Source of the DNA: a virus
DNA length: 64,000 nucleotides
Reading direction: 5' to 3' (one strand)
IMG/VR virus record: IMGVR_UViG_3300045988_108509
Coordinates: 1-64,000 of that record
In this document: piece by piece, positions 5,901 to 49,015 of the stretch
How the letters are laid out: the number at the start of each line of letters is the position of its first letter
How positions within the stretch are numbered: position 1 is the stretch's first letter
Position numbers and translations under genes: made by a program
The notes under the pieces: model-generated
Databases searched by the model: none
What the model was told of the DNA's origin: nothing
Seen by the model: only the letters and a program-made list of their open reading frames with translations

Positions 5901-6418
5901 AAACGATAAAAGTAGACAAAGTGATATTATATTACATGGATCGGGTAGACCCTGACGGGAACTTATACCGGTTCTATGTGTATAAAGGAATGGCATCTGA
6001 AATAGAATACTTTTGCACGGAAGAGGCAGGTAATATGACTATACCAATCGGAGAAGGAAAGTATATTGAAATCATGCCAAAAGAAATAGAGAAAATACCA
6101 GTAAGGGGATACAGGAGGCTTGCTGGAATATGGAATCGTGAAACATGTAACGGGAAGGGATGGTATAGGCTTTTTAATTATTTCAAATACAAGCCAGACA
6201 TATGTTATATTAAAAACATAGGGCGTGATAAAAATGGAAACACAAGATATGAAATATCATTATTTAATGCCACTATGAATGTGACAAGGTATTTTAATCT
6301 GTGGAGAATGAAGCCAGGGAAGCATGTTATGATAACAAACGAGTACGGAGTCTTGGATATTATAAAAGAAAAATTCGATAACATAAATATAGTGGAATAT
6401 AGTGGAATATGGTTCTAA
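5897..6418 (+). CDS. hypothetical protein
   Basis: ORF track; 10-bp tandem duplication ATAGTGGAAT x2 at its 3' end. Confidence 0.5.
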   Translation: MKTIKVDKVILYYMDRVDPDGNLYRFYVYKGMASEIEYFCTEEAGNMTIPIGEGKYIEIMPKEIEKIPVRGYRRLAGIWNRETCNGKGWYRLFNYFKYKPDICYIKNIGRDKNGNTRYEISLFNATMNVTRYFNLWRMKPGKHVMITNEYGVLDIIKEKFDNINIVEYSGIWF

Positions 6419-6681
6419 ATAAATTGTATAAAGAAATAGAAGAAGCAGAGGCCAGTCTGAATGCAAAAAGATTAAAGTACATCAAAGAAGCATTAGCAGA
6501 AAACAATGGAATTATAAAGCTAAAATTTAAAGAGTTTAAAGAATTTAAAGAAACTAATGATGTATTTGACTTTGACGATCAGTTTCCGGTGGTAATAGAA
6601 ATTGATGAAAATCCTATGTATTTAACGGAAGTGTATGCCAAAAAAAAACGATTTTCGTGTAGTCATGCTGGATTATACTGA
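6409..6681 (+). CDS. hypothetical protein (KEFKEFKE repeat)
   Basis: ORF track. Confidence 0.45.
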   Translation: MVLNKLYKEIEEAEASLNAKRLKYIKEALAENNGIIKLKFKEFKEFKETNDVFDFDDQFPVVIEIDENPMYLTEVYAKKKRFSCSHAGLY

Positions 6682-26977: not shown

Positions 26978-28079
26978 GATAGATATAAGAAGGATATTCA
27001 AGACCTCTAAACAGGTTATGGAAGAGGCGTATGAGAATATCTTAAAATACAGGCGGGGAGAGCTTATCCCCGCTAAAACCGGATACGATTATATTGATGA
27101 GGCTTTGCTTGGAGGTATTTTTCCTCAGCATGCTATTGCCATAGGAGCCCGGCCATCTGTGGGTAAATCGTATGTGGCCCAAAAGATATTGGAAAATGTG
27201 ATGAATCCGATGATCAACCCGCAAGCAGAAGATTATTTTCTTGTCAATTGTGAGTTCGAAATGAATCCTCAAGATCTTCTTCTTCGTAGAATGAGCCAGG
27301 ATATGAAAAAGAGGGCTCCTGAAATATTAAGAAGGCAAGATTCTAATACAGTAGAAGAGATGAGGATGTTTGAAATCCTTCAAGGTGAAATCAGGAATAA
27401 TATAATATACATAGATGCTCCGTGTACGGTAAAAGAGTTTGAGGCGGCTGTGTATCATATAGCTACCAAGCACAAAGACAAACGTCTTATAATATTTAAA
27501 GTCGATCATATTGCTTTGATAAAAAGAATGGGGTTAGATCCTAAGTCGGCTATAGATGATTTGGTGGCGGTTATGAATGAGGCTAAATTAGTATATAAAA
27601 ACATATTTTTCCTCATCATATCCCAATTCAACAGAGAAATAGAAGGAAGGATAAAAAGCCCACAAGAGCAGCCTCCGCGTCTTTCTGATTTTTACCAGTC
27701 TGATACGCTGGGTCAGTTATGTACGTTAATGATAGGCTTGCACAATCCTCGTAGGTACGGGCTGGATAAGTATATGATATTTGGGAAAGATTGGTATCAG
27801 ACTCTTGATAGGTTTAAAACTGAAAACAAAACATCATTCAGGACAGCCGGACTGGTGTTTCATCATATACTGAAGGTAAGGCAAGTTAGTATGGAAGAGC
27901 TTACTAATACAATCCACCCAGAGATCCTGCCGGGGCATGGATGGATGTACGGGGAGGGCGGGACGAAGTTCGTGAACCCCAACCAGCCGCCGACGCCGCC
28001 CAAGCTCTATACTGTGGAAGACGTTACGGACAATCAGGAACAAGAACAAGAGACAAAAGAAGAACAGTCATTGTATTAA
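26946..28079 (+). CDS. dnaB: replicative DNA helicase, DnaB-like (motif TGYDYIDEALLGGIFPQHAIAIGARPSVGKS)
   Basis: Classic DnaB C-terminal Walker A context GARPS(M/V)GK(T/S) preceded by a TG..D.D...GG motif. GC-rich island in the C-terminal tail (27930-28020). Confidence 0.8.
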   Translation: MTKMQEEIANRIDIRRIFKTSKQVMEEAYENILKYRRGELIPAKTGYDYIDEALLGGIFPQHAIAIGARPSVGKSYVAQKILENVMNPMINPQAEDYFLVNCEFEMNPQDLLLRRMSQDMKKRAPEILRRQDSNTVEEMRMFEILQGEIRNNIIYIDAPCTVKEFEAAVYHIATKHKDKRLIIFKVDHIALIKRMGLDPKSAIDDLVAVMNEAKLVYKNIFFLIISQFNREIEGRIKSPQEQPPRLSDFYQSDTLGQLCTLMIGLHNPRRYGLDKYMIFGKDWYQTLDRFKTENKTSFRTAGLVFHHILKVRQVSMEELTNTIHPEILPGHGWMYGEGGTKFVNPNQPPTPPKLYTVEDVTDNQEQEQETKEEQSLY

Positions 28080-28093
28080 AAAAAATAAGAACC

Positions 28094-28696
28094 ATGAGAC
28101 TAACAGTAGAAGAAAACGAATACCTGATAAGTAAGTTCCTTTTGGTTCTTACTGAGTTTGCAGGGGATGAAAGAGAGATGTTTTTAATCAACTCCATACA
28201 TGATAAGGCGGTGGCGGATATGAATTATCGTCTTCCGTCTTTAATAAGCAGAGAACGTAAAAGACGAGTCATTGAACTCCTTAAAGAAGGAACCAGAATA
28301 ATCAAGGACTTTTCCGGCTATGCAGGTGATATGGGTATGATTAACGAATACGATCGTTTAAAGAAAGAAATAGGAACCGTCCAAGACCAGCTTGGTGACG
28401 TAGAAGGTCAACTTCGGGCAGCAGGAGAAGTTATTAAAAAAGAACTTGATATGATTGCTGACCGAATCAAAGAAGACCTCCTCGACCGAGAACTGGCTAA
28501 AAGTAATGCCGAGGCCGAAAGAAAAGCCAAAGTAGATCCGAGATACGAAGTAGCTTTAGGTGATTACAAGGAGATGCTGGAAGTGATTTTTACAACCAGA
28601 AACAAGTATTCTACGGTAGATTCTGTACATGACGATCTTCGACAGTCGGTATCTACCGGTAGAAATTCGATTATTAAAGAAGGGTACAACAGTTAA
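28094..28696 (+). CDS. coiled-coil hypothetical protein (start at ATG MRLTVEEN)
   Basis: ORF track 27941..28696. The upstream part overlaps dnaB in another frame through the GC island, so the start was moved. Confidence 0.45.
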   Translation: MRLTVEENEYLISKFLLVLTEFAGDEREMFLINSIHDKAVADMNYRLPSLISRERKRRVIELLKEGTRIIKDFSGYAGDMGMINEYDRLKKEIGTVQDQLGDVEGQLRAAGEVIKKELDMIADRIKEDLLDRELAKSNAEAERKAKVDPRYEVALGDYKEMLEVIFTTRNKYSTVDSVHDDLRQSVSTGRNSIIKEGYNS

Positions 28697-28911: not shown

Positions 28912-29625
28912 ATGTACATCAATTTCAGACAACTTGCAGCATCAGACATGACTCCTAATGATCTTGCCAATCTTCTTGCCATAAGACAGAAGGATTCGGT
29001 TATGATCGAAGCCATGCCGGAAGAAGATGCTGGGAGGTATATAGAGCTTGGCCTGGTTGAGAAATTAAAATCAGGCGTGATGAGATTGACCAACAAGGGA
29101 ACGTCTTTTGTAAATTATATAGAGACACCGGAAATGACAGACGAGGTTCTGGAAACGTTGAAGATTATGATAGGAATGTACGAATCATATTCAAAAGACA
29201 TAGGTGTCAGTAGAAAAGAAGCGGAATCCAGATTGTGTTGGTTTATGGGTAACACCTCATTCAAGAAAGAGGTCATACTTCAGGTAACGGAATCTTATAT
29301 AGCAGAGTCAGGAGATTATACAATGAGCTTATGTAACTTCATATGGAAACCGCCTTCTCAGGCTTTTTCAGTCCATATGAACCTTAAAAACTCAAAGCTC
29401 TTCGACTTAATAGCTGAAAAATTCAAGATCGCTACCAAGCCTTATTTGGAGTCTAAGAAGAATAAGGAAATGGATTGGTTGTTTGCCGTATCTAAATTGC
29501 CTACGCCGCCGGCTAAAGGCAATCCGGATTATTTGTTTACCGGAAGTTCTGAAACAGACAAAGAGAGATTGAAAAACATAAAAACGTATTTATTTAACAA
29601 AATTAGAAAGCAATGGAAAAAGTAG
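28912..29625 (+). CDS. hypothetical protein (237 aa)
   Basis: ORF track. Confidence 0.55.
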   Translation: MYINFRQLAASDMTPNDLANLLAIRQKDSVMIEAMPEEDAGRYIELGLVEKLKSGVMRLTNKGTSFVNYIETPEMTDEVLETLKIMIGMYESYSKDIGVSRKEAESRLCWFMGNTSFKKEVILQVTESYIAESGDYTMSLCNFIWKPPSQAFSVHMNLKNSKLFDLIAEKFKIATKPYLESKKNKEMDWLFAVSKLPTPPAKGNPDYLFTGSSETDKERLKNIKTYLFNKIRKQWKK

Positions 29626-29864
29626 AAATCAGAAAGATTATAGAGGATATAATTATTACTCAGTTTCTTAATTCGTAAATGGATATAGTTCATGAAGAAG
29701 ATGTGACGTTTAAAGAACTTGGATTAGATTCTCTTGATCAAATTGAACTGGAAATGATGGTGGAACAAAAATTAAATATTGTTATTATTGATTATGATAT
29801 GGAGACCATCAAAGATATGACTGATCTTGTTTACAAAATAATAACAGAAGGGTATGGGAAGTGA
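29613..29864 (+). pseudogene. acpP: acyl carrier protein homolog interrupted by an in-frame TAA (29676-29678) directly followed by ATG; DSL phosphopantetheine-site motif intact (ELGLDSLDQIELEMMVEQ)
   Basis: Hand translation 29613 onward gives MEKVEIRKIIEDIIITQFLNS-stop-MDIVHEEDVTFKELGLDSLDQIELEMM...EGYGK. It aligns end-to-end with a bacterial AcpP-like sequence. The ORF track shows only the 61-aa distal part. Confidence 0.6.
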
Positions 29865-30348
29865 CATAATTTTATGCATGGCTTTAATAGCGTCATTTGC
29901 TTTTGTTATACAGTTTTTGTTATCGATATTAGGATCTGATCTGGATACGGATATTGACATTGACAGTGCTTCTGATTTAAGCATGTCTTTGTCGGACATC
30001 ATATCATTCAAGGGCATAACACATTTTATTCTTGGATATAGCTGGACTACCTACTTTTCGGGTTCCCATTTAGTAGGGGTTGTGATAGGGTCGTTTTTCT
30101 TTATCGTTTTGTTTTACGTATATAAGTTACTTCTTAAGTTAAAGCAAGAAATGGTGTACGAATGTCCGGAAGATTTAAATGGAAGAGAAGTGGAGATAGT
30201 GTTTAGATCAGGGAAGAATCATTATATGGTAAATATTTCGAAAAATGGAAGACAGGAGCAAATGAGAGTAAGATGCTTGTCTGGAAAAACCTACAAAAAC
30301 GGTGACAAGGTGAATATAAAATATGAAGAAGGAGAATTAAGTATCTAA
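29854..30348 (+). CDS. NfeD-like membrane protein (3 TM helices + C-terminal OB/beta-barrel domain)
   Basis: Topology and C-terminal G..V.V..G....V.V.G pattern are typical of NfeD/YuaF. It sits immediately upstream of a flotillin gene, as in yuaF-floT operons. Confidence 0.6.
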   Translation: MGSDIILCMALIASFAFVIQFLLSILGSDLDTDIDIDSASDLSMSLSDIISFKGITHFILGYSWTTYFSGSHLVGVVIGSFFFIVLFYVYKLLLKLKQEMVYECPEDLNGREVEIVFRSGKNHYMVNISKNGRQEQMRVRCLSGKTYKNGDKVNIKYEEGELSI

Positions 30349-30379
30349 TTTTTTTATCAACAATTAAATTTTAAAAGTT

Positions 30380-32080
30380 ATGACAACAATCATGTACGTG
30401 TCAGCTATCTTAGCTGTAGTGATTATTTTGACAATCATCGGAGTCTTATCAAGGTATCGTAGATGTAAGCCTAATCAGGTCTTGGTCGTTTACGGTAAGA
30501 CAGGTGGGGAAAAGAAATCGGCGAAATTATATCATGGTGGAGCGGCATTTGTCTTGCCTATTATTCAAAGCTATGATGTTTTGTCAATGGAGCCTATGCA
30601 AATAGATTGCAAGCTTACCGGTGCTTTGTCATCTCAGAATATTAGAGTAGATGTACCTACGACCATTACAGTAGCTATCAGTACAAATCCCGAAATCATG
30701 CAAAATGCGGCAGAAAGACTTTTGGGGATGGATACCGAATCTACTGAAAATCTTATTACGGACATCGTTTACGGTCAGATGCGTTTGATTATTGCTGAAA
30801 TGACAATCGAAAAACTTAATTCTGACAGGGATGAGTTTTTGGATAAGGCGAGAAAGAACATTGATAACGAGCTTAACAAGTTAGGTCTTTACCTCCTGAA
30901 CATCAACATCAGTGACATCAGAGATGAAGCCGGTTATATTATGAACCTTGGTAAGGAAGCTGAAAGTAGGGCTCTGAACGAGGCACAGGCTAATATCGAA
31001 GAACAGGAGAAGCTGGGTGCTATTAAAATTGCTGTACAGCAGAAGGAAAAAGAAACGGCTGTGGCTAATACCAAAAAAGAACAAGAGATTCAAATTGCTT
31101 GTACTGAAAAAGAAAAGGAGACAATAGTAGCTGAAACGAAGAAAGAAAAAGAAATAGCTTTAGCTTTAACCGATAAAGAGAAACAGATCGGTGTAGCCCA
31201 AGCAGATAGAGACAGGGCTGCGGTTATCGCAAAAACTTTAACCGACAAGGAATCGGCGATCGTAAGATCTAAGGCAGAACTTGAAGTAAATAAAGCCGAG
31301 GCTGAAAGAATGGAAGAAGTCGGAAAGAATAAGGCTGAAGCTGACAAGGAAGCAGCTATAGCAATACAAGACTCTGAAGCTCAGATTAAGAAGGCTGAGG
31401 CTGAGAAAAATGCGTCTATAGGATACAACAATGCCCAGAAGGAGGTTGCTGTGTCAGTATCAGAACTACAGATCATCAAAGCTCAATCAGAGAAGAAGGC
31501 CGGAGAAGAAAAAGTTAAATCGGAAGCGGCTGTAAAAACAGCAAAAGAGCTTGCCGAAAAAGAAGTGGAAGAAGCTAAAGCTAAGAAAGTTCAGGCTGCG
31601 CTTAAGGCTGAAAAGATTGTGCCGGCTGAAATTCAGAAACAGGAGGCTATGTTGCAAGCTGATGCTGAAGCTGAGAAGATCAAACGCCGGGCTGAGGCTG
31701 AGGCATCAGCACATTTGGCAAAAGCTGAGGCAGAGGCAAAAGCTATTCAGATGAAGCTGGAGGCAGAAGCCGAAGGTAAGAAAAAGTCGTTAATGGCAGA
31801 AGCCGACGGATTTAAGGCTATGGTGGAAGCAGCAGAATCCAATCCTCAGATCGCCATCCAGTACAAGATGGTTAATCAGTGGAAAGAAATTGCTGGAGAA
31901 CAGGTTAAAGCATTTGAGCACATTAATCTCGGAAATATCACGGTATTTGACGGCGGTCAGAACAGTACCGGTAATTTCCTTAACAATGTTGTCAAGACCG
32001 TCGCTCCGGCATTGGGAGTCATTGATCAGCTTCCGATTGCAGATACTTTAAAGAAATTAAAAGGAGATGACAAAAAATAA
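30380..32080 (+). CDS. floT: flotillin-like SPFH/Band-7 protein with N-terminal membrane anchor and AEAEA (EA-repeat) coiled-coil region
   Basis: N-terminal TM, SPFH-type core, long Ala/Glu heptad region with repeated AEAEA motifs, C-terminal flotillin-type tail; 566 aa. Confidence 0.8.
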   Translation: MTTIMYVSAILAVVIILTIIGVLSRYRRCKPNQVLVVYGKTGGEKKSAKLYHGGAAFVLPIIQSYDVLSMEPMQIDCKLTGALSSQNIRVDVPTTITVAISTNPEIMQNAAERLLGMDTESTENLITDIVYGQMRLIIAEMTIEKLNSDRDEFLDKARKNIDNELNKLGLYLLNINISDIRDEAGYIMNLGKEAESRALNEAQANIEEQEKLGAIKIAVQQKEKETAVANTKKEQEIQIACTEKEKETIVAETKKEKEIALALTDKEKQIGVAQADRDRAAVIAKTLTDKESAIVRSKAELEVNKAEAERMEEVGKNKAEADKEAAIAIQDSEAQIKKAEAEKNASIGYNNAQKEVAVSVSELQIIKAQSEKKAGEEKVKSEAAVKTAKELAEKEVEEAKAKKVQAALKAEKIVPAEIQKQEAMLQADAEAEKIKRRAEAEASAHLAKAEAEAKAIQMKLEAEAEGKKKSLMAEADGFKAMVEAAESNPQIAIQYKMVNQWKEIAGEQVKAFEHINLGNITVFDGGQNSTGNFLNNVVKTVAPALGVIDQLPIADTLKKLKGDDKK

Positions 32081-32243
32081 ATACAATGGCCCAAGGTTAC
32101 ACTTGGGCCTAATTGAAGAAATAAAAGCAGCATTCATAGATTTCCTGCCTGCGGGAACAGTGATTTTAAGTGCTTTACTAATTACGATATTTTTAACATG
32201 GATTTTGGACAAGATTTAGAACCAGAAGAACTGACCGGGCATT

Positions 32244-32603
32244 ATGATCAGTGTTATGGAATTGATTTTGAAACAGAAGAAGAGGAGGATGAAGAATATG
32301 ACGGATGAGGAATTTGCATTAGATAATAAGAAAAAAGTTGTTGTAAGAAAAAGAATATCCTATTTAAGCAAAGGGGATAAAGTGTGGATCGTGTCTTCCG
32401 ACGGCTACCTGCTACACACGGACGTCGTTCGGCGGGACCGGGGCCGATCTTATGTGGATATAGACGGGATACTGTATTGGAAGCGAGGATTAGATGGCAA
32501 GCATCGTAATCGTAATAACTACATGCAGTTTGCCATGACGCCGGAGGACGGTAAGAAGTATGTCGTATATTACCCGGAAGGATTTAAAGACAATGACTTA
32601 TGA
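32244..32603 (+). CDS. hypothetical protein
   Basis: ORF track; GC island at 32395-32460. Confidence 0.45.
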   Translation: MISVMELILKQKKRRMKNMTDEEFALDNKKKVVVRKRISYLSKGDKVWIVSSDGYLLHTDVVRRDRGRSYVDIDGILYWKRGLDGKHRNRNNYMQFAMTPEDGKKYVVYYPEGFKDNDL

Positions 32604-40973: not shown

Positions 40974-41020
40974 ACAACAGTCCCCAACCATACAATAGGC
41001 GTACGGTTGGGGACTGTTGT
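40974..41020. terminator. bidirectional Rho-independent terminator between convergent gene blocks: perfect 16-bp stem ACAACAGTCCCCAACC/GGTTGGGGACTGTTGT, 15-nt loop
   Basis: Read directly. It lies between the + stop (40930) and the - stop (41020-41022). Confidence 0.75.
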
Positions 41021-42592: not shown

Positions 42593-45500
42593 CTATTTGT
42601 AGCTTGTATCCTCATCACCTTCCGAATCAGGAGTGGCGCCGATGAAGAACATCATTGACTTGTTGTTCGTCTGCTGCCACCAATTATAAGCGCGCGCTAC
42701 GTCTTCCGGCGTCTTGATATTATACCATTGTTTGATAAACGTCTGTTTGGCGAGTTGCCTAAATAACTTAGACTCTCCTTTGTATGTGCCGGATGTTACT
42801 TTATCAAGTGAATAATTCCTAAGATCGGTAAGATCCTTCAGTTTCCGCCCCATAACAAACGGATCATTAATGATATCTACTACGTTAAGCTCCATAATAA
42901 ACGGCATCTGTGAAGCTATTTCGTTTATGGTTCTGAATCCGACATAGGATCCGAATTGAGTAAGCCAACTTTCTTCGTTTTCATCATCATCACGCCATCC
43001 GGCAAGAAGCATAGATACGGCCTGCATGATAAGGAACGTGCCGGCATAGACACTGAGACGTTTGAGATTGGTTTTTTCTACCTCATTCATATTGTCTTTA
43101 TTTTCATTCCAGGCATCTATGATGTTTTTCATACCAGACTCGGAAGCTAAGCTAAATGTTTTGGCTATCATATTCTTTAACGTAATTGACAGTCCTTCCT
43201 CTTCTTGCATTGTCTGGAAATTGAAGCCACGTCTTTTCCACAGACGTTGAGCCGCCAGCACCAACCATCCTCGGTGGGCGGTCATGAACCTGGCTATCCA
43301 GTTGCGCGATGCGGCAGTTCGGTTTTCTTCATTCAAAGATCCGTTACATATCTGCGACAAGCTACGGACTTGATTCCTGGTTATAGCCATCTGGGTTTCT
43401 ACTTCCTCAACAGTAACACCCGATCCGGGCTTTACAACCACCTTCCCATCCACGACGTCTACCATACTCCATAAAGTACGATCTTTTAATGCATTCCATT
43501 CTCTTTTTATGGTACTCTGTTCTTTATTGCGTTCTTTTTCCATCTTGAAATCTTGGAACGTGTAGAACCGGCCTTTGTAATAACGAACATTGTCCATAGT
43601 AGCAATCATAACCTGCGGATCAAGAGGGTAGTTCAGGATTTCCATAAAAGCATACATAGGCGAACGCATTAAGGTCCTGGCCGCTCTATTGTATCCGGCA
43701 CCATACATACGATTTCGGATATTGAATATCCCCATTCTCTCACCTATGACATATAATTTGCTTTTCCTATCTATGTCTCCGGTTTCTGCTATACAAGATG
43801 ACGCAAGACGTGAAAACTCAGCCGATGCGTATTTAAGGGAGTCTTTGCTTATATACTGTCCTACGGCAGATTCCATGATGAGGTTGATATGACCTGTCAG
43901 GGCGCCGGTAGCTGCCACAAACGGAGACAGTGCCAAGTTCATAACCGACATAAATCTTTCAACAGCCATCATAATTCTTGTAAGGTCTACCGTATATCCT
44001 CCGATGTTCACCGTAAGTTTTTTGGTGTTCATCCTAATGCCATAATAATGATCGTTGAAGAAGTCCCTGAACATCTGATATGCTTGGGTTGCTTCAGCCT
44101 TTTTACCGCCTTCAAATTGTTTGTTCAGCAACATCTGCTCCAGTCCTTGAGCGAGCTCTATAGACTTCTGCTTTTCGTTGTATAACGATGACTGCATCAT
44201 AAGCATCGAATAAGAGTAGCCAAAATCGTGAGATACATCATCTTGGTTCTCCAACTCATATATGTAGTATTTAGGTATAGACCTAAGTCTGTCTTCCGGA
44301 TCATATACTTCCCCTTGCCTGGTCTTACCATATAGAGAATCGTCTACTCTGTCCAGGCACAGATCTGATACAAAATTACGAACCGTATTTTTGAAGTTAA
44401 TACCCAATCCTTCCATACGTTCTATGTCTTGTTTTGATATCTGTGGAATAGCATACAAATTGGGACTCTGCTCTTTGTATAGATCAAGGGATTGTCTTTT
44501 TATTTCCTTGAGTTTTTGAATCATATTCCACTGCTCTACGTTTTTAGTAGCAACTTCATTACCGTCAGCATCATACTTGATACCAAAGTCATTGAAATAC
44601 GATTCATCACGATACAGGCTTTTCTTAGGCATGCGATGACCATACCCATGATCTTTTACATAATCAGGATTACGGCCGCTATTTTCGGCTTCAGATTCAG
44701 CCACCCATGCCCTTGCAGGATCGAAAGACAGGTACGATATGTCCATGCCATAATCTTGGGTGGATGTACCGTTTTGTACGTCCTTAACCATCTGCGCCAC
44801 ATCTATCTCACCTCGACCTATTTTGTCGATCATGGCCGCATATCCGGTAGGCGCCATGCGTTTATAGTACGAAAAGACCTGGCTCCTGGCAAATTCATTA
44901 ACAATAGCATTGGTCTCTTCTATGCCCTCTTCTCTTGTATTATTTAAAAACAAGCTGGCCATCTTAGCATTAACAGCATTCCTGAAATCTCTACCGTCTA
45001 ATTCTTTGCTTATACCAAGCTTTTCTGACAGGTAGTTGGTTTCAGATACGGTAAACAGATATCGGTTATCAGCAGCCTTAAACAGCTTATCCCTTAAAGC
45101 CTGAATCCTTTTTGCTTTCTTCGCCGTAGTATGACGTTGTACGAACTTCCATTCCACTTCCTTGGAGTCAGCAAGAGCATTTAAATAAGACTGATTTACT
45201 TCGTTTTCGGCCTTACTGCTTTTAGTAAGGTACTTATCAATATCTTCAAGACCCACCATCTTAGCATAATCTATTAAGATAGCGTAATCAGCTTCAATAG
45301 CTTCAGATGCGGCCCTAAAAGCATCTCTTTCAGATGAGGTAAATGTCGCTTCGTTAATTTCTCCGATATCAGCCACATCTCGGTTGTTTCCGATTATTTC
45401 CTTGATAATGGCCTTATTTTTTTCTATATCTTTCACAATCGAATCCACGTCAGTCGCATCTCTATCACTTGTCGTAGAACTAATGATATCATGCGCCATT

Positions 45501-48500
45501 TTAAGATACGAAGCCTTGTTATTTGATTCGGTACGCGCCGACTGTTCCGATTCTACGTCATTCCAAAACCGATCGTTGAATGACAGGTGACCCCCCAACA
45601 TAAGCGTCTTCAGCGCAGCTTCTCCTCCTGACTCGTTCTGAATCGTTCTTAATTTTTGCAAAAACGATTCTGATACGGCATTAGTGGCATTATTTGATTC
45701 TTTTCTCCAAACTTCATTTATGGCTTGTATTTCTTTGGCCATCTTAAGTTGGTCGCCGGTTTTTTCCACTCTCCTGGTTCCTACATATATGTATTCTGAA
45801 GCTGCTTCCTTACGTTGTTTACGAAGCAGTCCTTCTTCTTCGTAATTGCTGCTTTTAAAATAGGCAACCTCATCAAAATTACCACCGCTATCAATAAAAG
45901 GCTGCCTCAATATCCGTTTTTGCCTGGATAGAGCATTAAGGTATTCTTTGGTTGTTTGAGAAACCGGATGCCCTAATTCTTCTTCAGCCTTTTTGTATAT
46001 GGATTCCATTCTTGTGGCATAACTTTCGCTAAATTCCAGTTCCGAATTTTCAGCATCCCACTTTTCCATCTGCTCTGTATAGATCTTTTCCTGCTCGATG
46101 GTAAAAATATCGGTATTAACTCTATCAGACGATGGTTTGAATTTAGCGTTTTCAGTAACCGTATTTCCATCCTTGTCAACTACTTCTCTTTTAAATACGT
46201 AATTACGGTTATTGTCAACCACATCACCAATTTCTTCTTCTGATATCTCTATGTTCATGGCAGTCGCAAACGCTCGCATCTGCGCCAGCTTCTTATTACG
46301 ATCGTATTTAGCCATATCAAGAGCACTACGAAGGTAATTAGAAGTTTTGCCGTCTACTTTCTGAAGCAGTTTTTCAAATTCAGATTTGTTAAAACCATGC
46401 TTTTTAGCATATGCCAGGAAGTCGGATATGGCGGGCTGGGCATTCACCATCGCATTGTAATTGTCTTTGGCAATCATAGCTCCAAGAGCGTTATTGAACG
46501 GGCTGGAGGAATGTTCTAATATACCGAACCACCTACTTATCCAAGAAACATCGTGTTGAACCTTGTCAAAAAATTCTTTTACTCTCTTTACCTTATCTGC
46601 CGGCACATGAAGTTCGTTCATTAACTTATCAAGCAACGTACTTTCATCAAGGTCTTGTACTGATTTAATATCAGAATGAATACCATTGATGTCGGCAATG
46701 ACGGTATTGATCCTATTTGTATAATCCTGCTTTTCACGTTCATCAAATTCGGTACTTCTGTTACGGATATATCCTCGAAGATCGTTCATGATCGGAAGAA
46801 CCTGATTGTTGATAATATCTACGTTCTTTCGATCATTGGTATTGAAGTGAAGCTTACCGTCTTTGGTATCACCATGAAGGATGGTGTTTACCACATTACT
46901 TAAGTATCTGACCTGAGCTTCGGCTGTGGAGATCATGCTGTTCATGGCAGCCGCCATCTCATTCTTGTCTATTTCGGTCTCTACCTTATTTATCTTATCT
47001 TCTATGGTCTTAAGCTGCGCAAGGGTCATAGACGTAGTTACAGCCCTATCAGAGCTTATCTGACGTAAGTCTCTTAAGGTTTTTCTTAATGCCAGGATCT
47101 TAGACTCAAGAAACTTGTTCTTGTTCATAGAAGAAAGGGAGTATAATGTAAAGTCATTATCCTTTAACAGAGAGGTGTCAAATCCTTTATCTATGTCAGT
47201 AATGGCAAGATCACGAATGTTTTTAATAACGTTATTCAAATCTTGTCTTTGGGTTGATAAAGCTGATTTAAGCCAGCTTACGATTCCAGATAGAAACTGC
47301 CGGACGCGCCCCAGGAAGGAGGTGGGCTCTACCGGCGCCTGCGCTGTGCCGGTCTGCATCTCCCTGGCGAGGATCTTTCCAAGAATTTCTCTCCTAACGG
47401 CATTATCAAGCTCAGCTCCTTCATATACCTTACCGTATGTATTATAATACTGACCTGCATACTGGTTCCACTCTTCCGTACCTTCTACATCTTGCAGAAC
47501 AGCCTCAACAGCATTCTGATCTCTGTATGCCTCTACAAGGAAGTGGGCTGTTTCTTCTACTAAATCGGATAAAGTAGCATCTTCACCAACTGCTATTACG
47601 TTATTGGCAATATCCGCCAATGCCTTAGCAGAAGGTTCATGCCCGTATTTGGTTTGGTACTTCTCTATATAGTCGGTCATACCTATGACACTAACGCCAA
47701 GAGTTTTCAGTATCTCGACAATAGAATTTCGTTGGTCACGTTCCTGCCTGCTATAATCTGATACGATCTTAGCTTTAGTATCAGCATAAAGATCGTTGTC
47801 TTCTAATATGAATGAAACTACAAGCGCATCAAAATGATCGTACTTGGCGTCCAATTCATTGTATCTTCCTGACTTAAGATCGTTCTTTATCTGCTCTTTG
47901 CTAACCCTTTCCGTTCCTCCGGTGGCGAGTCTCATCGTTACCTTACTGTTATCCAACGAGCTTATGGTTATCATACCTTGATCGTTCATGGAAACATCGG
48001 AACCAAAATGATTACGGAGCTCAGTGTAGGATAAGGCTGAATTGAAAAGTCTAATTTGTCCTGTATGACCTTCTCCTGTAAGATAATAGCTTCTTGTTTC
48101 AGGATCGAATATCTTAGATCCGGACAAAAGACCTTTCTTTATAAGGTAGTTAATTATACCACCTTTTGTTGATAAAGAAGTGGAAGCAGAAGCGGTCATG
48201 ACCGGTATAAAAGATTTTGGATTATTAAGAACATACTTTCCAGCTTTGTAAGTAATGTCTGCCACGCCATCCACGGTAGATTCTTGAACAGTGCCTGATA
48301 AGAATCCTATTCTAATATCATTCCCGCCAGAGCGAAGAGCTTCTCCGTAATCTTCAAATAATTGACTACGATCGTTCATGAAAAACAAACGAGGCTCTCC
48401 GGTCTGATACGTTACACCCACAGGATTAGAATCTGTCTGTGGTAACTCTTCTGGGCTAAATATCTTAAGACCGTCTTTTATAACCATATAATTAACACCC

Positions 48501-49015
48501 TTATCCTGTACCATAGATACGGGAGTGAAGTCCGAAGATATAGCATCTTGTAGATACTGCCCGGCGTCTATTCCTGGTTCTTCCGGTACGGAAATACTTG
48601 ACGGAACCATAGCATCCACCAACATAATATTATCACCCAGATCTTGGCTGTAGAATCCAAAGCCCGATTCTCGGATTTCATAAGGTGCATCTGATTTTGA
48701 TACAAGAACAGGGTTACTCATCTTAGAAGCCTTATCCAGCACCCTTTCTCTATAGGCTTCCGGAATAAGATCGATGTTGGATTTTACCTTATTATAAGCC
48801 GGTTTGTTGATAGGCACTCTCTTTATCCAGTCGCCAAAAGCCTTTAAGAACTTATTAGAAAATACGGTTTTAAAAACAGCAGTAGCCCGCTCCCTGTTCT
48901 CCATAAGAGGAATAGATGCTATCTTATCAAACAACATAGACCTGTCCCCTGATCTGGTAGAGACAGAAACAACTTTCTTTTTATTATCTCTTTTAATAAT
49001 ACACGTTGATACCAT
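42593..49015 (-). CDS. giant 2140-aa protein (probable virion-associated/structural or ejection protein; function unknown)
   Basis: Uninterrupted 6.4-kb ORF. No Walker motif or RNAP DxDGD motif was seen. Confidence 0.7.
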   Translation of the reverse strand: MVSTCIIKRDNKKKVVSVSTRSGDRSMLFDKIASIPLMENRERATAVFKTVFSNKFLKAFGDWIKRVPINKPAYNKVKSNIDLIPEAYRERVLDKASKMSNPVLVSKSDAPYEIRESGFGFYSQDLGDNIMLVDAMVPSSISVPEEPGIDAGQYLQDAISSDFTPVSMVQDKGVNYMVIKDGLKIFSPEELPQTDSNPVGVTYQTGEPRLFFMNDRSQLFEDYGEALRSGGNDIRIGFLSGTVQESTVDGVADITYKAGKYVLNNPKSFIPVMTASASTSLSTKGGIINYLIKKGLLSGSKIFDPETRSYYLTGEGHTGQIRLFNSALSYTELRNHFGSDVSMNDQGMITISSLDNSKVTMRLATGGTERVSKEQIKNDLKSGRYNELDAKYDHFDALVVSFILEDNDLYADTKAKIVSDYSRQERDQRNSIVEILKTLGVSVIGMTDYIEKYQTKYGHEPSAKALADIANNVIAVGEDATLSDLVEETAHFLVEAYRDQNAVEAVLQDVEGTEEWNQYAGQYYNTYGKVYEGAELDNAVRREILGKILAREMQTGTAQAPVEPTSFLGRVRQFLSGIVSWLKSALSTQRQDLNNVIKNIRDLAITDIDKGFDTSLLKDNDFTLYSLSSMNKNKFLESKILALRKTLRDLRQISSDRAVTTSMTLAQLKTIEDKINKVETEIDKNEMAAAMNSMISTAEAQVRYLSNVVNTILHGDTKDGKLHFNTNDRKNVDIINNQVLPIMNDLRGYIRNRSTEFDEREKQDYTNRINTVIADINGIHSDIKSVQDLDESTLLDKLMNELHVPADKVKRVKEFFDKVQHDVSWISRWFGILEHSSSPFNNALGAMIAKDNYNAMVNAQPAISDFLAYAKKHGFNKSEFEKLLQKVDGKTSNYLRSALDMAKYDRNKKLAQMRAFATAMNIEISEEEIGDVVDNNRNYVFKREVVDKDGNTVTENAKFKPSSDRVNTDIFTIEQEKIYTEQMEKWDAENSELEFSESYATRMESIYKKAEEELGHPVSQTTKEYLNALSRQKRILRQPFIDSGGNFDEVAYFKSSNYEEEGLLRKQRKEAASEYIYVGTRRVEKTGDQLKMAKEIQAINEVWRKESNNATNAVSESFLQKLRTIQNESGGEAALKTLMLGGHLSFNDRFWNDVESEQSARTESNNKASYLKMAHDIISSTTSDRDATDVDSIVKDIEKNKAIIKEIIGNNRDVADIGEINEATFTSSERDAFRAASEAIEADYAILIDYAKMVGLEDIDKYLTKSSKAENEVNQSYLNALADSKEVEWKFVQRHTTAKKAKRIQALRDKLFKAADNRYLFTVSETNYLSEKLGISKELDGRDFRNAVNAKMASLFLNNTREEGIEETNAIVNEFARSQVFSYYKRMAPTGYAAMIDKIGRGEIDVAQMVKDVQNGTSTQDYGMDISYLSFDPARAWVAESEAENSGRNPDYVKDHGYGHRMPKKSLYRDESYFNDFGIKYDADGNEVATKNVEQWNMIQKLKEIKRQSLDLYKEQSPNLYAIPQISKQDIERMEGLGINFKNTVRNFVSDLCLDRVDDSLYGKTRQGEVYDPEDRLRSIPKYYIYELENQDDVSHDFGYSYSMLMMQSSLYNEKQKSIELAQGLEQMLLNKQFEGGKKAEATQAYQMFRDFFNDHYYGIRMNTKKLTVNIGGYTVDLTRIMMAVERFMSVMNLALSPFVAATGALTGHINLIMESAVGQYISKDSLKYASAEFSRLASSCIAETGDIDRKSKLYVIGERMGIFNIRNRMYGAGYNRAARTLMRSPMYAFMEILNYPLDPQVMIATMDNVRYYKGRFYTFQDFKMEKERNKEQSTIKREWNALKDRTLWSMVDVVDGKVVVKPGSGVTVEEVETQMAITRNQVRSLSQICNGSLNEENRTAASRNWIARFMTAHRGWLVLAAQRLWKRRGFNFQTMQEEEGLSITLKNMIAKTFSLASESGMKNIIDAWNENKDNMNEVEKTNLKRLSVYAGTFLIMQAVSMLLAGWRDDDENEESWLTQFGSYVGFRTINEIASQMPFIMELNVVDIINDPFVMGRKLKDLTDLRNYSLDKVTSGTYKGESKLFRQLAKQTFIKQWYNIKTPEDVARAYNWWQQTNNKSMMFFIGATPDSEGDEDTSYK

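Follow-up and report, generated by a model that had tools for sequence, protein, structure and literature searches.

A host-derived flotillin operon in the replication-gene block of a crAss-like phage

The replication-gene block of a crAss-like phage holds a two-gene operon of Bacteroidales chromosomal origin, in which a 164-aa NfeD-like membrane protein precedes a 566-aa flotillin. The phage captured it before at least two phage species diverged, and the operon is accessory, of the 'moron' or auxiliary type, rather than essential. The acyl carrier protein (ACP) gene that precedes the pair is a separate phage gene, translationally linked to it and outside the bacterial operon; in the DNA analysed here it is a nonsense allele. 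The identity and origin of the operon are held with high confidence, its functional mechanism only tentatively.

The phage locus and its bacterial source

The window is a stretch of 64,000 nucleotides from an IMG/VR virus record (IMGVR_UViG_3300045988_108509, positions 1 to 64,000). Its source is a crAss-like phage of human-gut, putatively Bacteroidales hosts, and a close relative of csAssE-Sib, a GenBank phage from the human gut with a complete genome of 151 kb and about 97% identity to the window across the region. The csAssE-Sib genome encodes terminase, portal, capsid, muzzle and BACON-domain proteins. An ORF of 2140 aa has its match in a family of virion structural proteins. The three consecutive, co-oriented genes described in the earlier note are present as an adjacent trio on the + strand, in the interval between a DnaB-like helicase gene and a PD-(D/E)XK exonuclease gene. 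In csAssE-Sib they already carry the GenBank labels 'acyl carrier protein', 'transmembrane protein' and 'flotillin family protein'. The features of the locus are as follows.

29613..29864, + strand: ACP-like gene of 83 codons, interrupted here (PP-binding and PHROG 5934 matches)
29676..29678, + strand: in-frame TAA stop at ACP codon 22 (GAA in relatives)
29679..29864, + strand: residual 61-aa ORF, beginning at an ATG right behind the TAA
29854..30348, + strand: 164-aa NfeD-like flotillin partner (C-terminal barrel, nt 30187-30342)
30380..32080, + strand: 566-aa flotillin (Band_7, Flot and PDB flotillin-2/-1 matches)
nt 30389-30445: flotillin membrane anchor
nt 30467-31012: flotillin SPFH/Band_7 domain
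about nt 31013-31726: flotillin coiled coil, rich in A, E and K
nt 31727-32056: Flot C-terminal domain
30352..32191: segment missing at sequenced flotillin-less junctions (contains flotillin and the greater part of the 50-aa ORF)
32067..32219, + strand: small, tail-anchored membrane ORF of 50 aa that overlaps the stop of flotillin
32088..32109: GC-rich 8-bp hairpin right behind the flotillin stop codon (pattern scan only)

The 50-aa ORF vanishes along with flotillin, and a 52-aa ORF occupies the same position in a sister phage species; a search for a bacterial counterpart found none. Scans for sigma-70 promoters and for terminators are uninformative in a Bacteroidales phage.

The phage lineage is found widely in metagenomes of the human gut, where the identical 164-aa protein occurs on at least 1000 contigs. 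The co-occurrence search of viral databases that had been proposed finds the same synteny in csAssE-Sib, on IMG/VR viral contigs (163 carry the flotillin, the longest being 154 kb) and in the sister species, whose trio consists of an ACP, a 166-aa protein and a 568-aa flotillin 82% identical to that of the window. Flotillin-like matches of any kind are found in only 11 of 50,697 phage records, in keeping with the view that this is not a standard phage module.

The source of the pair is apparent from 80 Bacteroidales loci, whose flotillins are 63-67% identical to the phage protein over its full length. In 79 of the 80 a partner homologue (30-41% identical to the phage partner) lies immediately upstream of flotillin, separated by a gap of 20-140 nt. 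The bacterial gene order suggested in the earlier note is thus reproduced by a complete pair in the phage. A neighbour-joining tree nests the phage flotillin clade among Bacteroidales flotillins, and E. coli YqiK is 24% identical to the phage protein. Identity to the host flotillin is unevenly distributed: the SPFH domain stands at 0.75-0.79, the C-terminal domain at 0.79-0.88 and the coiled coil at about 0.5.

Flotillin, its partner and the interrupted ACP gene

Profile searches identify the 566-aa protein as a bona fide flotillin of the SPFH superfamily. Residues 30-211 match Pfam Band_7 (PF01145) at 7.6e-26 (91.7 bits against a cut-off of 23.6), and residues 450-559 match Pfam Flot (PF15975) at 1.3e-9 (38.7 bits against a cut-off of 27). 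A hydrophobic N-terminal anchor spans residues 4-22, and residues 201-450 contain 21% A, 18% E and 16% K. The two matches, the hydropathy and the composition all agree with the anchor, SPFH core and EA-rich coiled coil previously proposed. Tandem DNA repeats are ruled out as the origin of the coiled coil, there being just two trivial hexamer runs. The match to the NCBIfam FloT equivalog NF058507 falls below threshold (145.5 bits against a cut-off of 700); judged by these scores, the phage protein belongs to the flotillin family but is not a FloT orthologue. Its nearest solved relatives are human flotillin-2 and flotillin-1 (PDB 9bq2, 9l3g), by homology to which it may form a large, membrane-attached oligomeric cage.

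The 164-aa partner is termed NfeD-like because of its fold, architecture and synteny, the Pfam test having failed. Its AlphaFold2 model (pLDDT 89.6) comprises helices at residues 2-25, 52-69 and 72-96, followed by a beta-barrel at residues 112-163. The barrel is predicted to be of OB type and to resemble the C-domains of solved NfeD proteins, and NfeD proteins are the top match in three structure searches. The protein also carries an acidic DxDxDxD loop, and an SPFH gene adjoins it downstream after a 31-nt gap. Three transmembrane segments had been claimed; the model has three N-terminal helices, but hydropathy yields only two strongly hydrophobic segments, the middle helix falling under the threshold.

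The NfeD-like helices and barrel therefore stand in the model, but the Pfam check does not place the protein in NfeD. The NfeD profile (PF01957) has no match to the window protein, P0019 or P0045 even at E ≤ 10, and none to eight bacterial partners at E ≤ 1. Likewise, no partner matches the YqiJ models of Pfam (YqiJ_N, PF21001; YqiJ_OB, PF07290), for the window protein again with the limit at E ≤ 10; both models are matched by E. coli YqiJ, the positive control. PHROG and NCBIfam searches of the partner and of its phage and bacterial homologues return no NfeD or YqiJ match, hhalign comparisons of partner profiles with E. coli YqiJ are not significant (probability 1-5%), and a seven-sequence partner profile matches none of the PDB sequences. 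A profile of the 78-sequence family finds only YuaF among PDB sequences, aligned in register at an E of 0.27, and two of the 78 members match PF01957 (best 6e-5), forming a weak sequence bridge to NfeD. One NCBI record labels the identical phage protein 'DUF1449', a label not reproduced by the YqiJ/DUF1449 model search.

The ACP gene was described in the earlier note as carrying an intact DSL motif. The motif is indeed there, with its serine, and LGLDSLD is conserved in both phage species; the frame that contains it is broken by the TAA at 29676-29678. Read through this stop, the translation matches Pfam PP-binding (PF00550) with 25.6 bits against a cut-off of 20.8. The match to PHROG 5934, 'acyl carrier protein' (3e-9), also extends across the stop, and NCBIfam ACP models reach 2e-9 on the gene, under their cut-offs. 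The longest clean ORF, the 61-aa one, keeps the DSL serine and loses the N-terminal 22 residues.

Codon 22 reads GAA in csAssE-Sib, and the frame is intact there and in 64 of 69 related loci, all of them exonuclease-anchored; the other five, like the window, are disrupted, with nonsense and frameshift alleles at several sites. Sequencing error is unlikely to account for the TAA because an independent viral contig (L034) has the same allele; the best identity of any fetched locus, L034 included, to the window is 97.1%. Recoding of the stop was considered and rejected: TAA ends both the 164-aa gene and the flotillin gene, so the codon does terminate translation in this genome, and at the ACP position relatives carry GAA.

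Constraint, loss and possible roles

Flotillin is under strong purifying selection. Its pN/pS is 0.041 (SPFH domain 0.02, coiled coil 0.06, C-terminal domain 0.02), and that of its partner 0.082, compared with 0.061 for the DnaB-like helicase and 0.044 for the exonuclease. Across the 69 loci it is nevertheless intact in 45, truncated in seven by six different lesions, and absent from 17, vs 69 of 69 intact for the partner. Loss in about 35% of genomes shows flotillin to be dispensable for basic propagation, and such dispensability argues against a scaffold that replication or assembly could not do without. All five flotillin-less loci checked by blastn share the junction 30351|32192 (window numbering), three of them aligned base by base. 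Flotillin-less genomes do not form one clade: the deletion is scattered over the flank phylogeny, where absence requires 10-13 parsimony changes and shuffled labels need 15.3 on average.

The best overall explanation, which on balance we find slightly probable, is an accessory, host-derived SPFH/NfeD-like operon that would act on the host membrane. We infer everything beyond the identity of the proteins from homology. The operon would probably be expressed alongside the replication genes, since it sits within their block. The N-terminal anchor would insert flotillin into the host inner membrane, and the coiled coil and C-terminal domain would let it oligomerise as a dome-shaped SPFH cage. The partner, in turn, would lie in the membrane with its OB domain on flotillin, by analogy with YbbJ and QmcA. 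The phage proteins could also supplement host flotillin assemblies or mix into them, given the 77-88% identity to the host protein that the SPFH and C-terminal domains retain. The likely effect would be that the membrane and its client proteins are stabilised or reorganised during infection. The small partner is retained in every locus and may therefore be the more important component. A point against the joint scheme is that it is equally constrained where the phage flotillin is missing (pN/pS 0.088 vs 0.082, a comparison weakened by recombination between backgrounds), and so need not act through that flotillin.

A rather unlikely alternative is that the operon serves superinfection exclusion or another conflict, with an inner-membrane assembly blocking DNA injection by rival phages or blunting a membrane-based defence. 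Its value would then vary with host strain and competitors and give rise to presence/absence polymorphism. The occurrence of one deletion allele at all five junctions, spread across genetic backgrounds, is consistent with this, as are the six independent truncating lesions found alongside strong constraint on intact alleles and the predicted inner-membrane location of every product. To our knowledge, however, no exclusion system employs flotillin, and the operon nearly copies a housekeeping operon of the host. Membership in a defence system was rejected, as PADLOC defence models have no match to the five block proteins at E ≤ 0.01.

A role in governing a host membrane protease, or in protein quality control, is unlikely. 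Here, the pair would shift the turnover of membrane proteins of host or phage, for instance to set the balance between persistence and lysis. SPFH cages that enclose or regulate membrane proteases are an established theme, and HflK/C cages act in this way on FtsH. One source calls the Bacteroides partner a 'membrane protein implicated in regulation of membrane protease activity', and in S. aureus FloA and its NfeD protein stabilise unfolded proteins under stress (PMC13086221). The phage partner is, however, a short form of 164 aa that lacks a protease domain, and neither in the phage nor in the bacterial loci examined does the pair have a protease gene next to it.

The constancy of the partner invites a further reading, again an unlikely one, in which this small protein is the core effector, docking on host flotillin cages and redirecting them during infection. 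The phage flotillin would then be an optional add-on, its value dependent on host strain and its presence/absence polymorphism maintained by balancing selection in a freely recombining population. If true, this would be a viral system that commandeers bacterial SPFH membrane microdomains.

That the operon is instead an inert passenger, a host fragment acquired by the phage and now decaying, is decidedly improbable. Decay could be read from the 24 of 69 genomes with flotillin absent or truncated, from the ACP lesions, that of the window included, and from in-frame partner::flotillin deletion fusions seen in other assemblies. The selection data disfavour it: the pN/pS values of flotillin and partner equal those of essential replication genes, the pair is kept in two phage species whose flotillins are 18% apart, and the partner is intact throughout the 69 genomes.

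More doubtful still is a lipid-linked module of all three genes, in which acylated ACP would feed or mark a microdomain. Overlaps of 13 nt with a 237-aa gene upstream and of 11 nt with the 164-aa gene place the ACP gene in the same transcription unit, and the trio is retained in the sister species with its conserved serine motif. The lipid or acyl link that the earlier note read from this adjacency nevertheless lacks support on several counts. An ACP homologue lies within 4 kb of flotillin in none of the 80 Bacteroidales loci, and the ACP gene, with a pN/pS of 0.418, is the least constrained of the block. Between the two phage species it is 40% identical, against 82% for flotillin, and its disruption and flotillin loss fall in different genomes. 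In addition, the 206 features annotated in csAssE-Sib include neither a phosphopantetheinyl transferase nor a lipid enzyme (annotations only, most of them 'hypothetical'; host enzymes could serve), and unrelated large phages have ACPs without flotillin.

A chimeric assembly or bacterial contamination, which the kinship of both genes with Bacteroidales chromosomal genes might suggest, is effectively refuted because the locus recurs in the same order across independent assemblies (the complete GenBank genome, the IMG/VR contigs and the sister species), with G+C content and strand skew running on unbroken through the region and no bacterial flotillin closer than the 63-67% given above.

Little is yet understood about bacterial flotillins and the NfeD proteins that partner them. 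The searchable literature yielded no functional study of the Bacteroidales flotillin operon, no paper on a phage flotillin (crAss-like phages, Crassvirales and phage-encoded SPFH proteins included) and nothing relevant on csAssE-Sib. The natural deletion, truncation and coiled-coil-length variants of this phage constitute a ready allelic series, with which one can ask what an SPFH cage is worth to a virus and, by extension, to a cell.

Relation to known systems

The kind of system is already known: its genes are recognisable and annotated in GenBank, and stand-alone flotillins occur sporadically in other large phages. Two of these, Vibrio phage KIT04 and the faecal phage scaffold MT835492.1, encode flotillins that likewise have the anchor, SPFH domain and EA coiled coil. 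They are only 26-30% identical to the flotillin of the window and are therefore independent acquisitions. No NfeD-like partner is evident upstream of either, the position being taken by an 82-aa hypothetical gene in KIT04 and by an unrelated 277-aa ORF in MT835492.1. Stand-alone small ACPs with a DSL serine, as in the window, are known from Yersinia phage fHe-Yen9-04 and Brevundimonas phage Bajun (PHROG 5934). ACPs of this type are 42-45% identical to that of the window over partial length only; unlike them, the window ACP is fast-evolving and interrupted by a stop.

Among cellular systems, the yuaF(nfeD2)-floT pair of B. subtilis and the yqiJ-yqiK pair of E. coli are remote from the phage pair by sequence. 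A structural precedent for an NfeD protein seated with an SPFH partner is provided by E. coli QmcA-YbbJ (PDB 8z5g). In a Foldseek search with the whole partner model YbbJ comes out best, aligned over 119 columns that span both the membrane helices and the OB domain, though weakly (E 0.012, TM-score about 0.3). QmcA itself belongs to the stomatin type of SPFH proteins, whereas the phage has a flotillin. SPFH-NfeD cages are also described in PMC13086221, which cites Tan et al. 2024.

The closest counterpart is the Bacteroidales operon itself, as found in Bacteroides xylanisolvens XB1A and Phocaeicola vulgatus ATCC 8482, where a membrane protein of 165-177 aa is followed by flotillin. The phage operon agrees with it in its two genes and their order, in the shortness of the gap between them and in domain layout, and its partner shares the DxDxD loop, the SFKGxxHF motif and the OB tail. 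It differs in its setting, lying in a replication block with an ACP gene before it and the phage-specific 50-aa ORF after it, and in its flotillin, whose coiled coil is about 50% identical to that of the host and variable in length, and whose presence is polymorphic.

Flotillin and its partner in the phage genome

Three consecutive, co-oriented ORFs, as described in the earlier note, lie in a plus-strand replication block, flanked by a DnaB-like helicase and a PD-(D/E)XK exonuclease, then a helicase.

29613-29864, + strand: ACP-like gene, interrupted; homologous to PHROG 5934 over residues 6-75
29854-30348, + strand: 164-aa NfeD-like partner, assigned on fold, architecture and synteny
30380-32080, + strand: flotillin, 566 aa; Pfam Band_7 and Flot
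42593-49015, - strand: 2140-aa ORF; virion structural protein family PHROG 37651 (6e-76)

The region is 97.4% identical to csAssE-Sib (GenBank OR575929.1), a complete 151-kb genome from the human gut, where the trio is labelled 'acyl carrier protein', 'transmembrane protein' and 'flotillin family protein'. Its other annotations include BACON-type carbohydrate-binding tail proteins as well as terminase, portal, capsid, ring and muzzle proteins. Among IMG/VR viral contigs, 163 carry this flotillin and 226 the neighbouring exonuclease. A chimeric assembly, the artefact that the earlier note had warned of, is excluded by the complete csAssE-Sib genome and by these 163 flotillin-bearing contigs.

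Several other features were observed. csAssE-Sib has an annotated diversity-generating retroelement (VR/TR and reverse transcriptase) at its tail-fibre gene, two TnpB genes and a Ro60-related protein adjoining tRNA genes (45.7-47.8 kb, 59-60 kb, 64-65 kb and 73-75 kb). By coordinate mapping, its counterpart of the 2140-aa ORF is annotated as 1885 aa. Near 41000, GC skew and AT skew both flip sign where the coding strand changes from plus to minus, which fits two gene blocks, divergent or convergent, of the kind present in crAss-like genomes. A 251-aa ORF (27941-28696) shares 139 nt, in a different frame, with the 3' end of the DnaB-like helicase gene. Because 45 of 69 related loci did not yield its first ~50 residues, its translation probably begins 3' of the helicase stop codon.

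The 566-aa product is indeed a flotillin, matching Pfam Band_7 at residues 30-211 (7.6e-26) and Flot at residues 450-559 (1.3e-9), with a single hydrophobic segment at the N-terminus and a middle third rich in A/E/K. The nearest solved structures are human flotillin-2 and flotillin-1; its score of 145 bits falls far short of the FloT equivalog cut-off of 700 bits. The coiled coil (~31013-31726) varies in length among near-identical alleles, giving proteins of ~460-660 aa, and one allele (P0148) lacks ~85 residues in frame. Such changes would alter the height of the dome in an SPFH cage.

The Pfam check proposed for the 164-aa protein fails: neither it nor any homologue tried singly matches NfeD or YqiJ, while E. 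coli YqiJ, the positive control, matches its own models. Its NfeD-like identity finds support elsewhere. A high-confidence AlphaFold2 model (pLDDT 89.6; alignment of 78 sequences) predicts three N-terminal helices followed by a six-stranded barrel at 112-163, and a Foldseek search of 350,542 chains ranks first YbbJ, which is the NfeD component of the SPFH-NfeD cage QmcA-YbbJ. At the sequence level, Pfam NfeD is hit by two of the 78 family members (6e-5), and a profile of the family gives an in-register alignment to YuaF (E 0.27). Since these scores are modest, with generic OB folds ranking close behind, it is fold, architecture and synteny taken together that support the assignment. Database names vary, with 'DUF1449' given to the identical protein in one NCBI record and the COG1585 (NfeD) phrase to the Bacteroides homologue in one source.

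Residues 29-58 (29938-30027) hold an acidic D-x-D-x-D-x-D loop and an SFKGxxHF motif, conserved from phage to Bacteroidales homologues and in the 78-member alignment. Their conservation suggests a putative metal-binding or interaction site, undescribed for NfeD. Four distinct in-frame deletions in other assemblies (proteins P0028, P0031, P0033 and P0047, one of them from a sister phage species) fuse the N-terminal part of the partner to the C-terminal part of flotillin; they represent genuine deletions or else artefacts of assembly.

Capture from a Bacteroidales operon

The database relatives that diverge most from the phage flotillin lie on bacterial contigs amid housekeeping genes, each preceded by a 165-aa gene whose product is 40-42% identical to the phage partner. 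A scan of GTDB species genomes yielded 80 Bacteroidales flotillin loci (Bacteroides, Parabacteroides, Phocaeicola, Prevotella, Leyella and Xylanibacter), with flotillins 63-67% identical to that of the phage. The proposed bacterial NfeD-flotillin order is borne out, the partner gene standing 20-140 nt upstream of flotillin in 79 of the 80; the remaining locus lacks upstream sequence. Neighbour-joining analysis places the phage clade on a long branch nested among Bacteroidales flotillins. From this nesting and the shared gene order it follows that flotillin and partner are a conserved Bacteroidales operon captured by the phage. The SPFH and C-terminal domains are 75-88% identical to host proteins, the coiled coil ~50%. 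The sister species carries ACP, 166-aa and 568-aa genes in the same arrangement, its flotillin 82% identical, so capture is older than the split of the two phage species.

Constraint and loss

Gene content was compared in 69 viral loci that were anchored on the exonuclease, had full flanks and were chosen independently of flotillin.

State of each gene in the 69 loci
DnaB-like helicase: 69 intact, 0 truncated or disrupted, 0 absent
237-aa gene: 69 intact, 0 truncated or disrupted, 0 absent
Exonuclease: 69 intact, 0 truncated or disrupted, 0 absent
164-aa partner: 69 intact, 0 truncated or disrupted, 0 absent
ACP: 64 intact, 5 truncated or disrupted, 0 absent
Flotillin: 45 intact, 7 truncated (six independent lesions), 17 absent

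Intact flotillin alleles are under strong constraint, with a pN/pS of 0.041 (exonuclease 0.044, DnaB-like helicase 0.061, partner 0.082). Constraint on the partner is unchanged in flotillin-less genomes. A single junction (window 30351|32192) is common to all five flotillin-less loci looked at in detail, and several such loci are on near-complete contigs of 140-153 kb. Presence is likely ancestral, given the flotillin of the sister species. On the flank phylogeny the deletion requires 10-13 parsimony changes (mean 15.3 with shuffled labels), a scatter that implies spread by recombination.

A 50-aa tail-anchored ORF (32067-32219) overlaps the flotillin stop codon and disappears with flotillin in flotillin-less genomes. 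It is truncated in ~39 viral loci, ending '...GTVLY', and a 52-aa ORF takes its place in the sister species; a search for a bacterial counterpart found none. Within it, 8 nt past the flotillin stop, a perfect 8-bp GC-rich hairpin (32088-32109; GGCCCAAG ... CTTGGGCC) is a candidate element for transcript end or stability. Four loci (L089, L091, L100 and L154; ~6300-6655) have ~355 extra bases inserted at window 32255-32257, between the 50-aa ORF region and a 119-aa gene; gene content 3' of the partner gene is thus variable.

The ACP-like gene, which overlaps both its neighbours, had been described as having an intact DSL motif. Its homology to PHROG 5934 stands, and the LGLDSLD motif is retained in both phage species, between which the ACPs are only 40% identical, but translation from 29613 meets an in-frame TAA at 29676-29678. 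The homology runs across this codon, which is GAA in the nearest relative. Because both neighbouring genes end in TAA, it is a real stop; the same allele occurs in an independent viral contig (L034), and a 61-aa ORF begins at the ATG immediately 3' of it. The ACP is not taken as evidence for the proposed lipid or acyl link: it is weakly constrained (pN/pS 0.418), its frame has been broken repeatedly, the bacterial operon lacks it (no homologue within 4 kb of flotillin in any of the 80 loci), and neither a phosphopantetheinyl transferase nor a lipid gene is among the csAssE-Sib annotations. It is treated as a separate phage gene.

Possible roles and relation to known systems

These comparisons establish what the genes are, how they are built, where they came from, how tightly they are constrained and that flotillin is dispensable. 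By analogy with published SPFH/NfeD biology (PMC13086221; PDB 8z5g and 9bq2), the phage flotillin would assemble into an oligomeric cage attached to the membrane, to which the partner would bind via its OB domain. Mixing with host flotillin is plausible, as the SPFH and C-terminal domains are still so host-like in sequence. Any benefit to the phage would be conditional, in the manner of auxiliary or 'moron' genes. That the pair serves superinfection exclusion is unlikely; none of five proteins of the block matches PADLOC defence models. Control of a membrane protease is an improbable role. Neutral cargo is very improbable, being disfavoured by the pN/pS of flotillin (0.041) and partner (0.082).

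No paper on csAssE-Sib-type phage or phage flotillins was found. Phages seldom carry flotillin-like genes, with matches in 11 of 50,697 phage records, most of them weak or partial. In Vibrio phage KIT04 and in a faecal scaffold, flotillin has no evident partner, and E. coli YqiK is 24% identical to the phage flotillin. The phage flotillin and partner belong recognisably to known families, carry GenBank annotations and were copied from an operon of the host; their main value is as a natural series of alleles with which to study SPFH/NfeD function.
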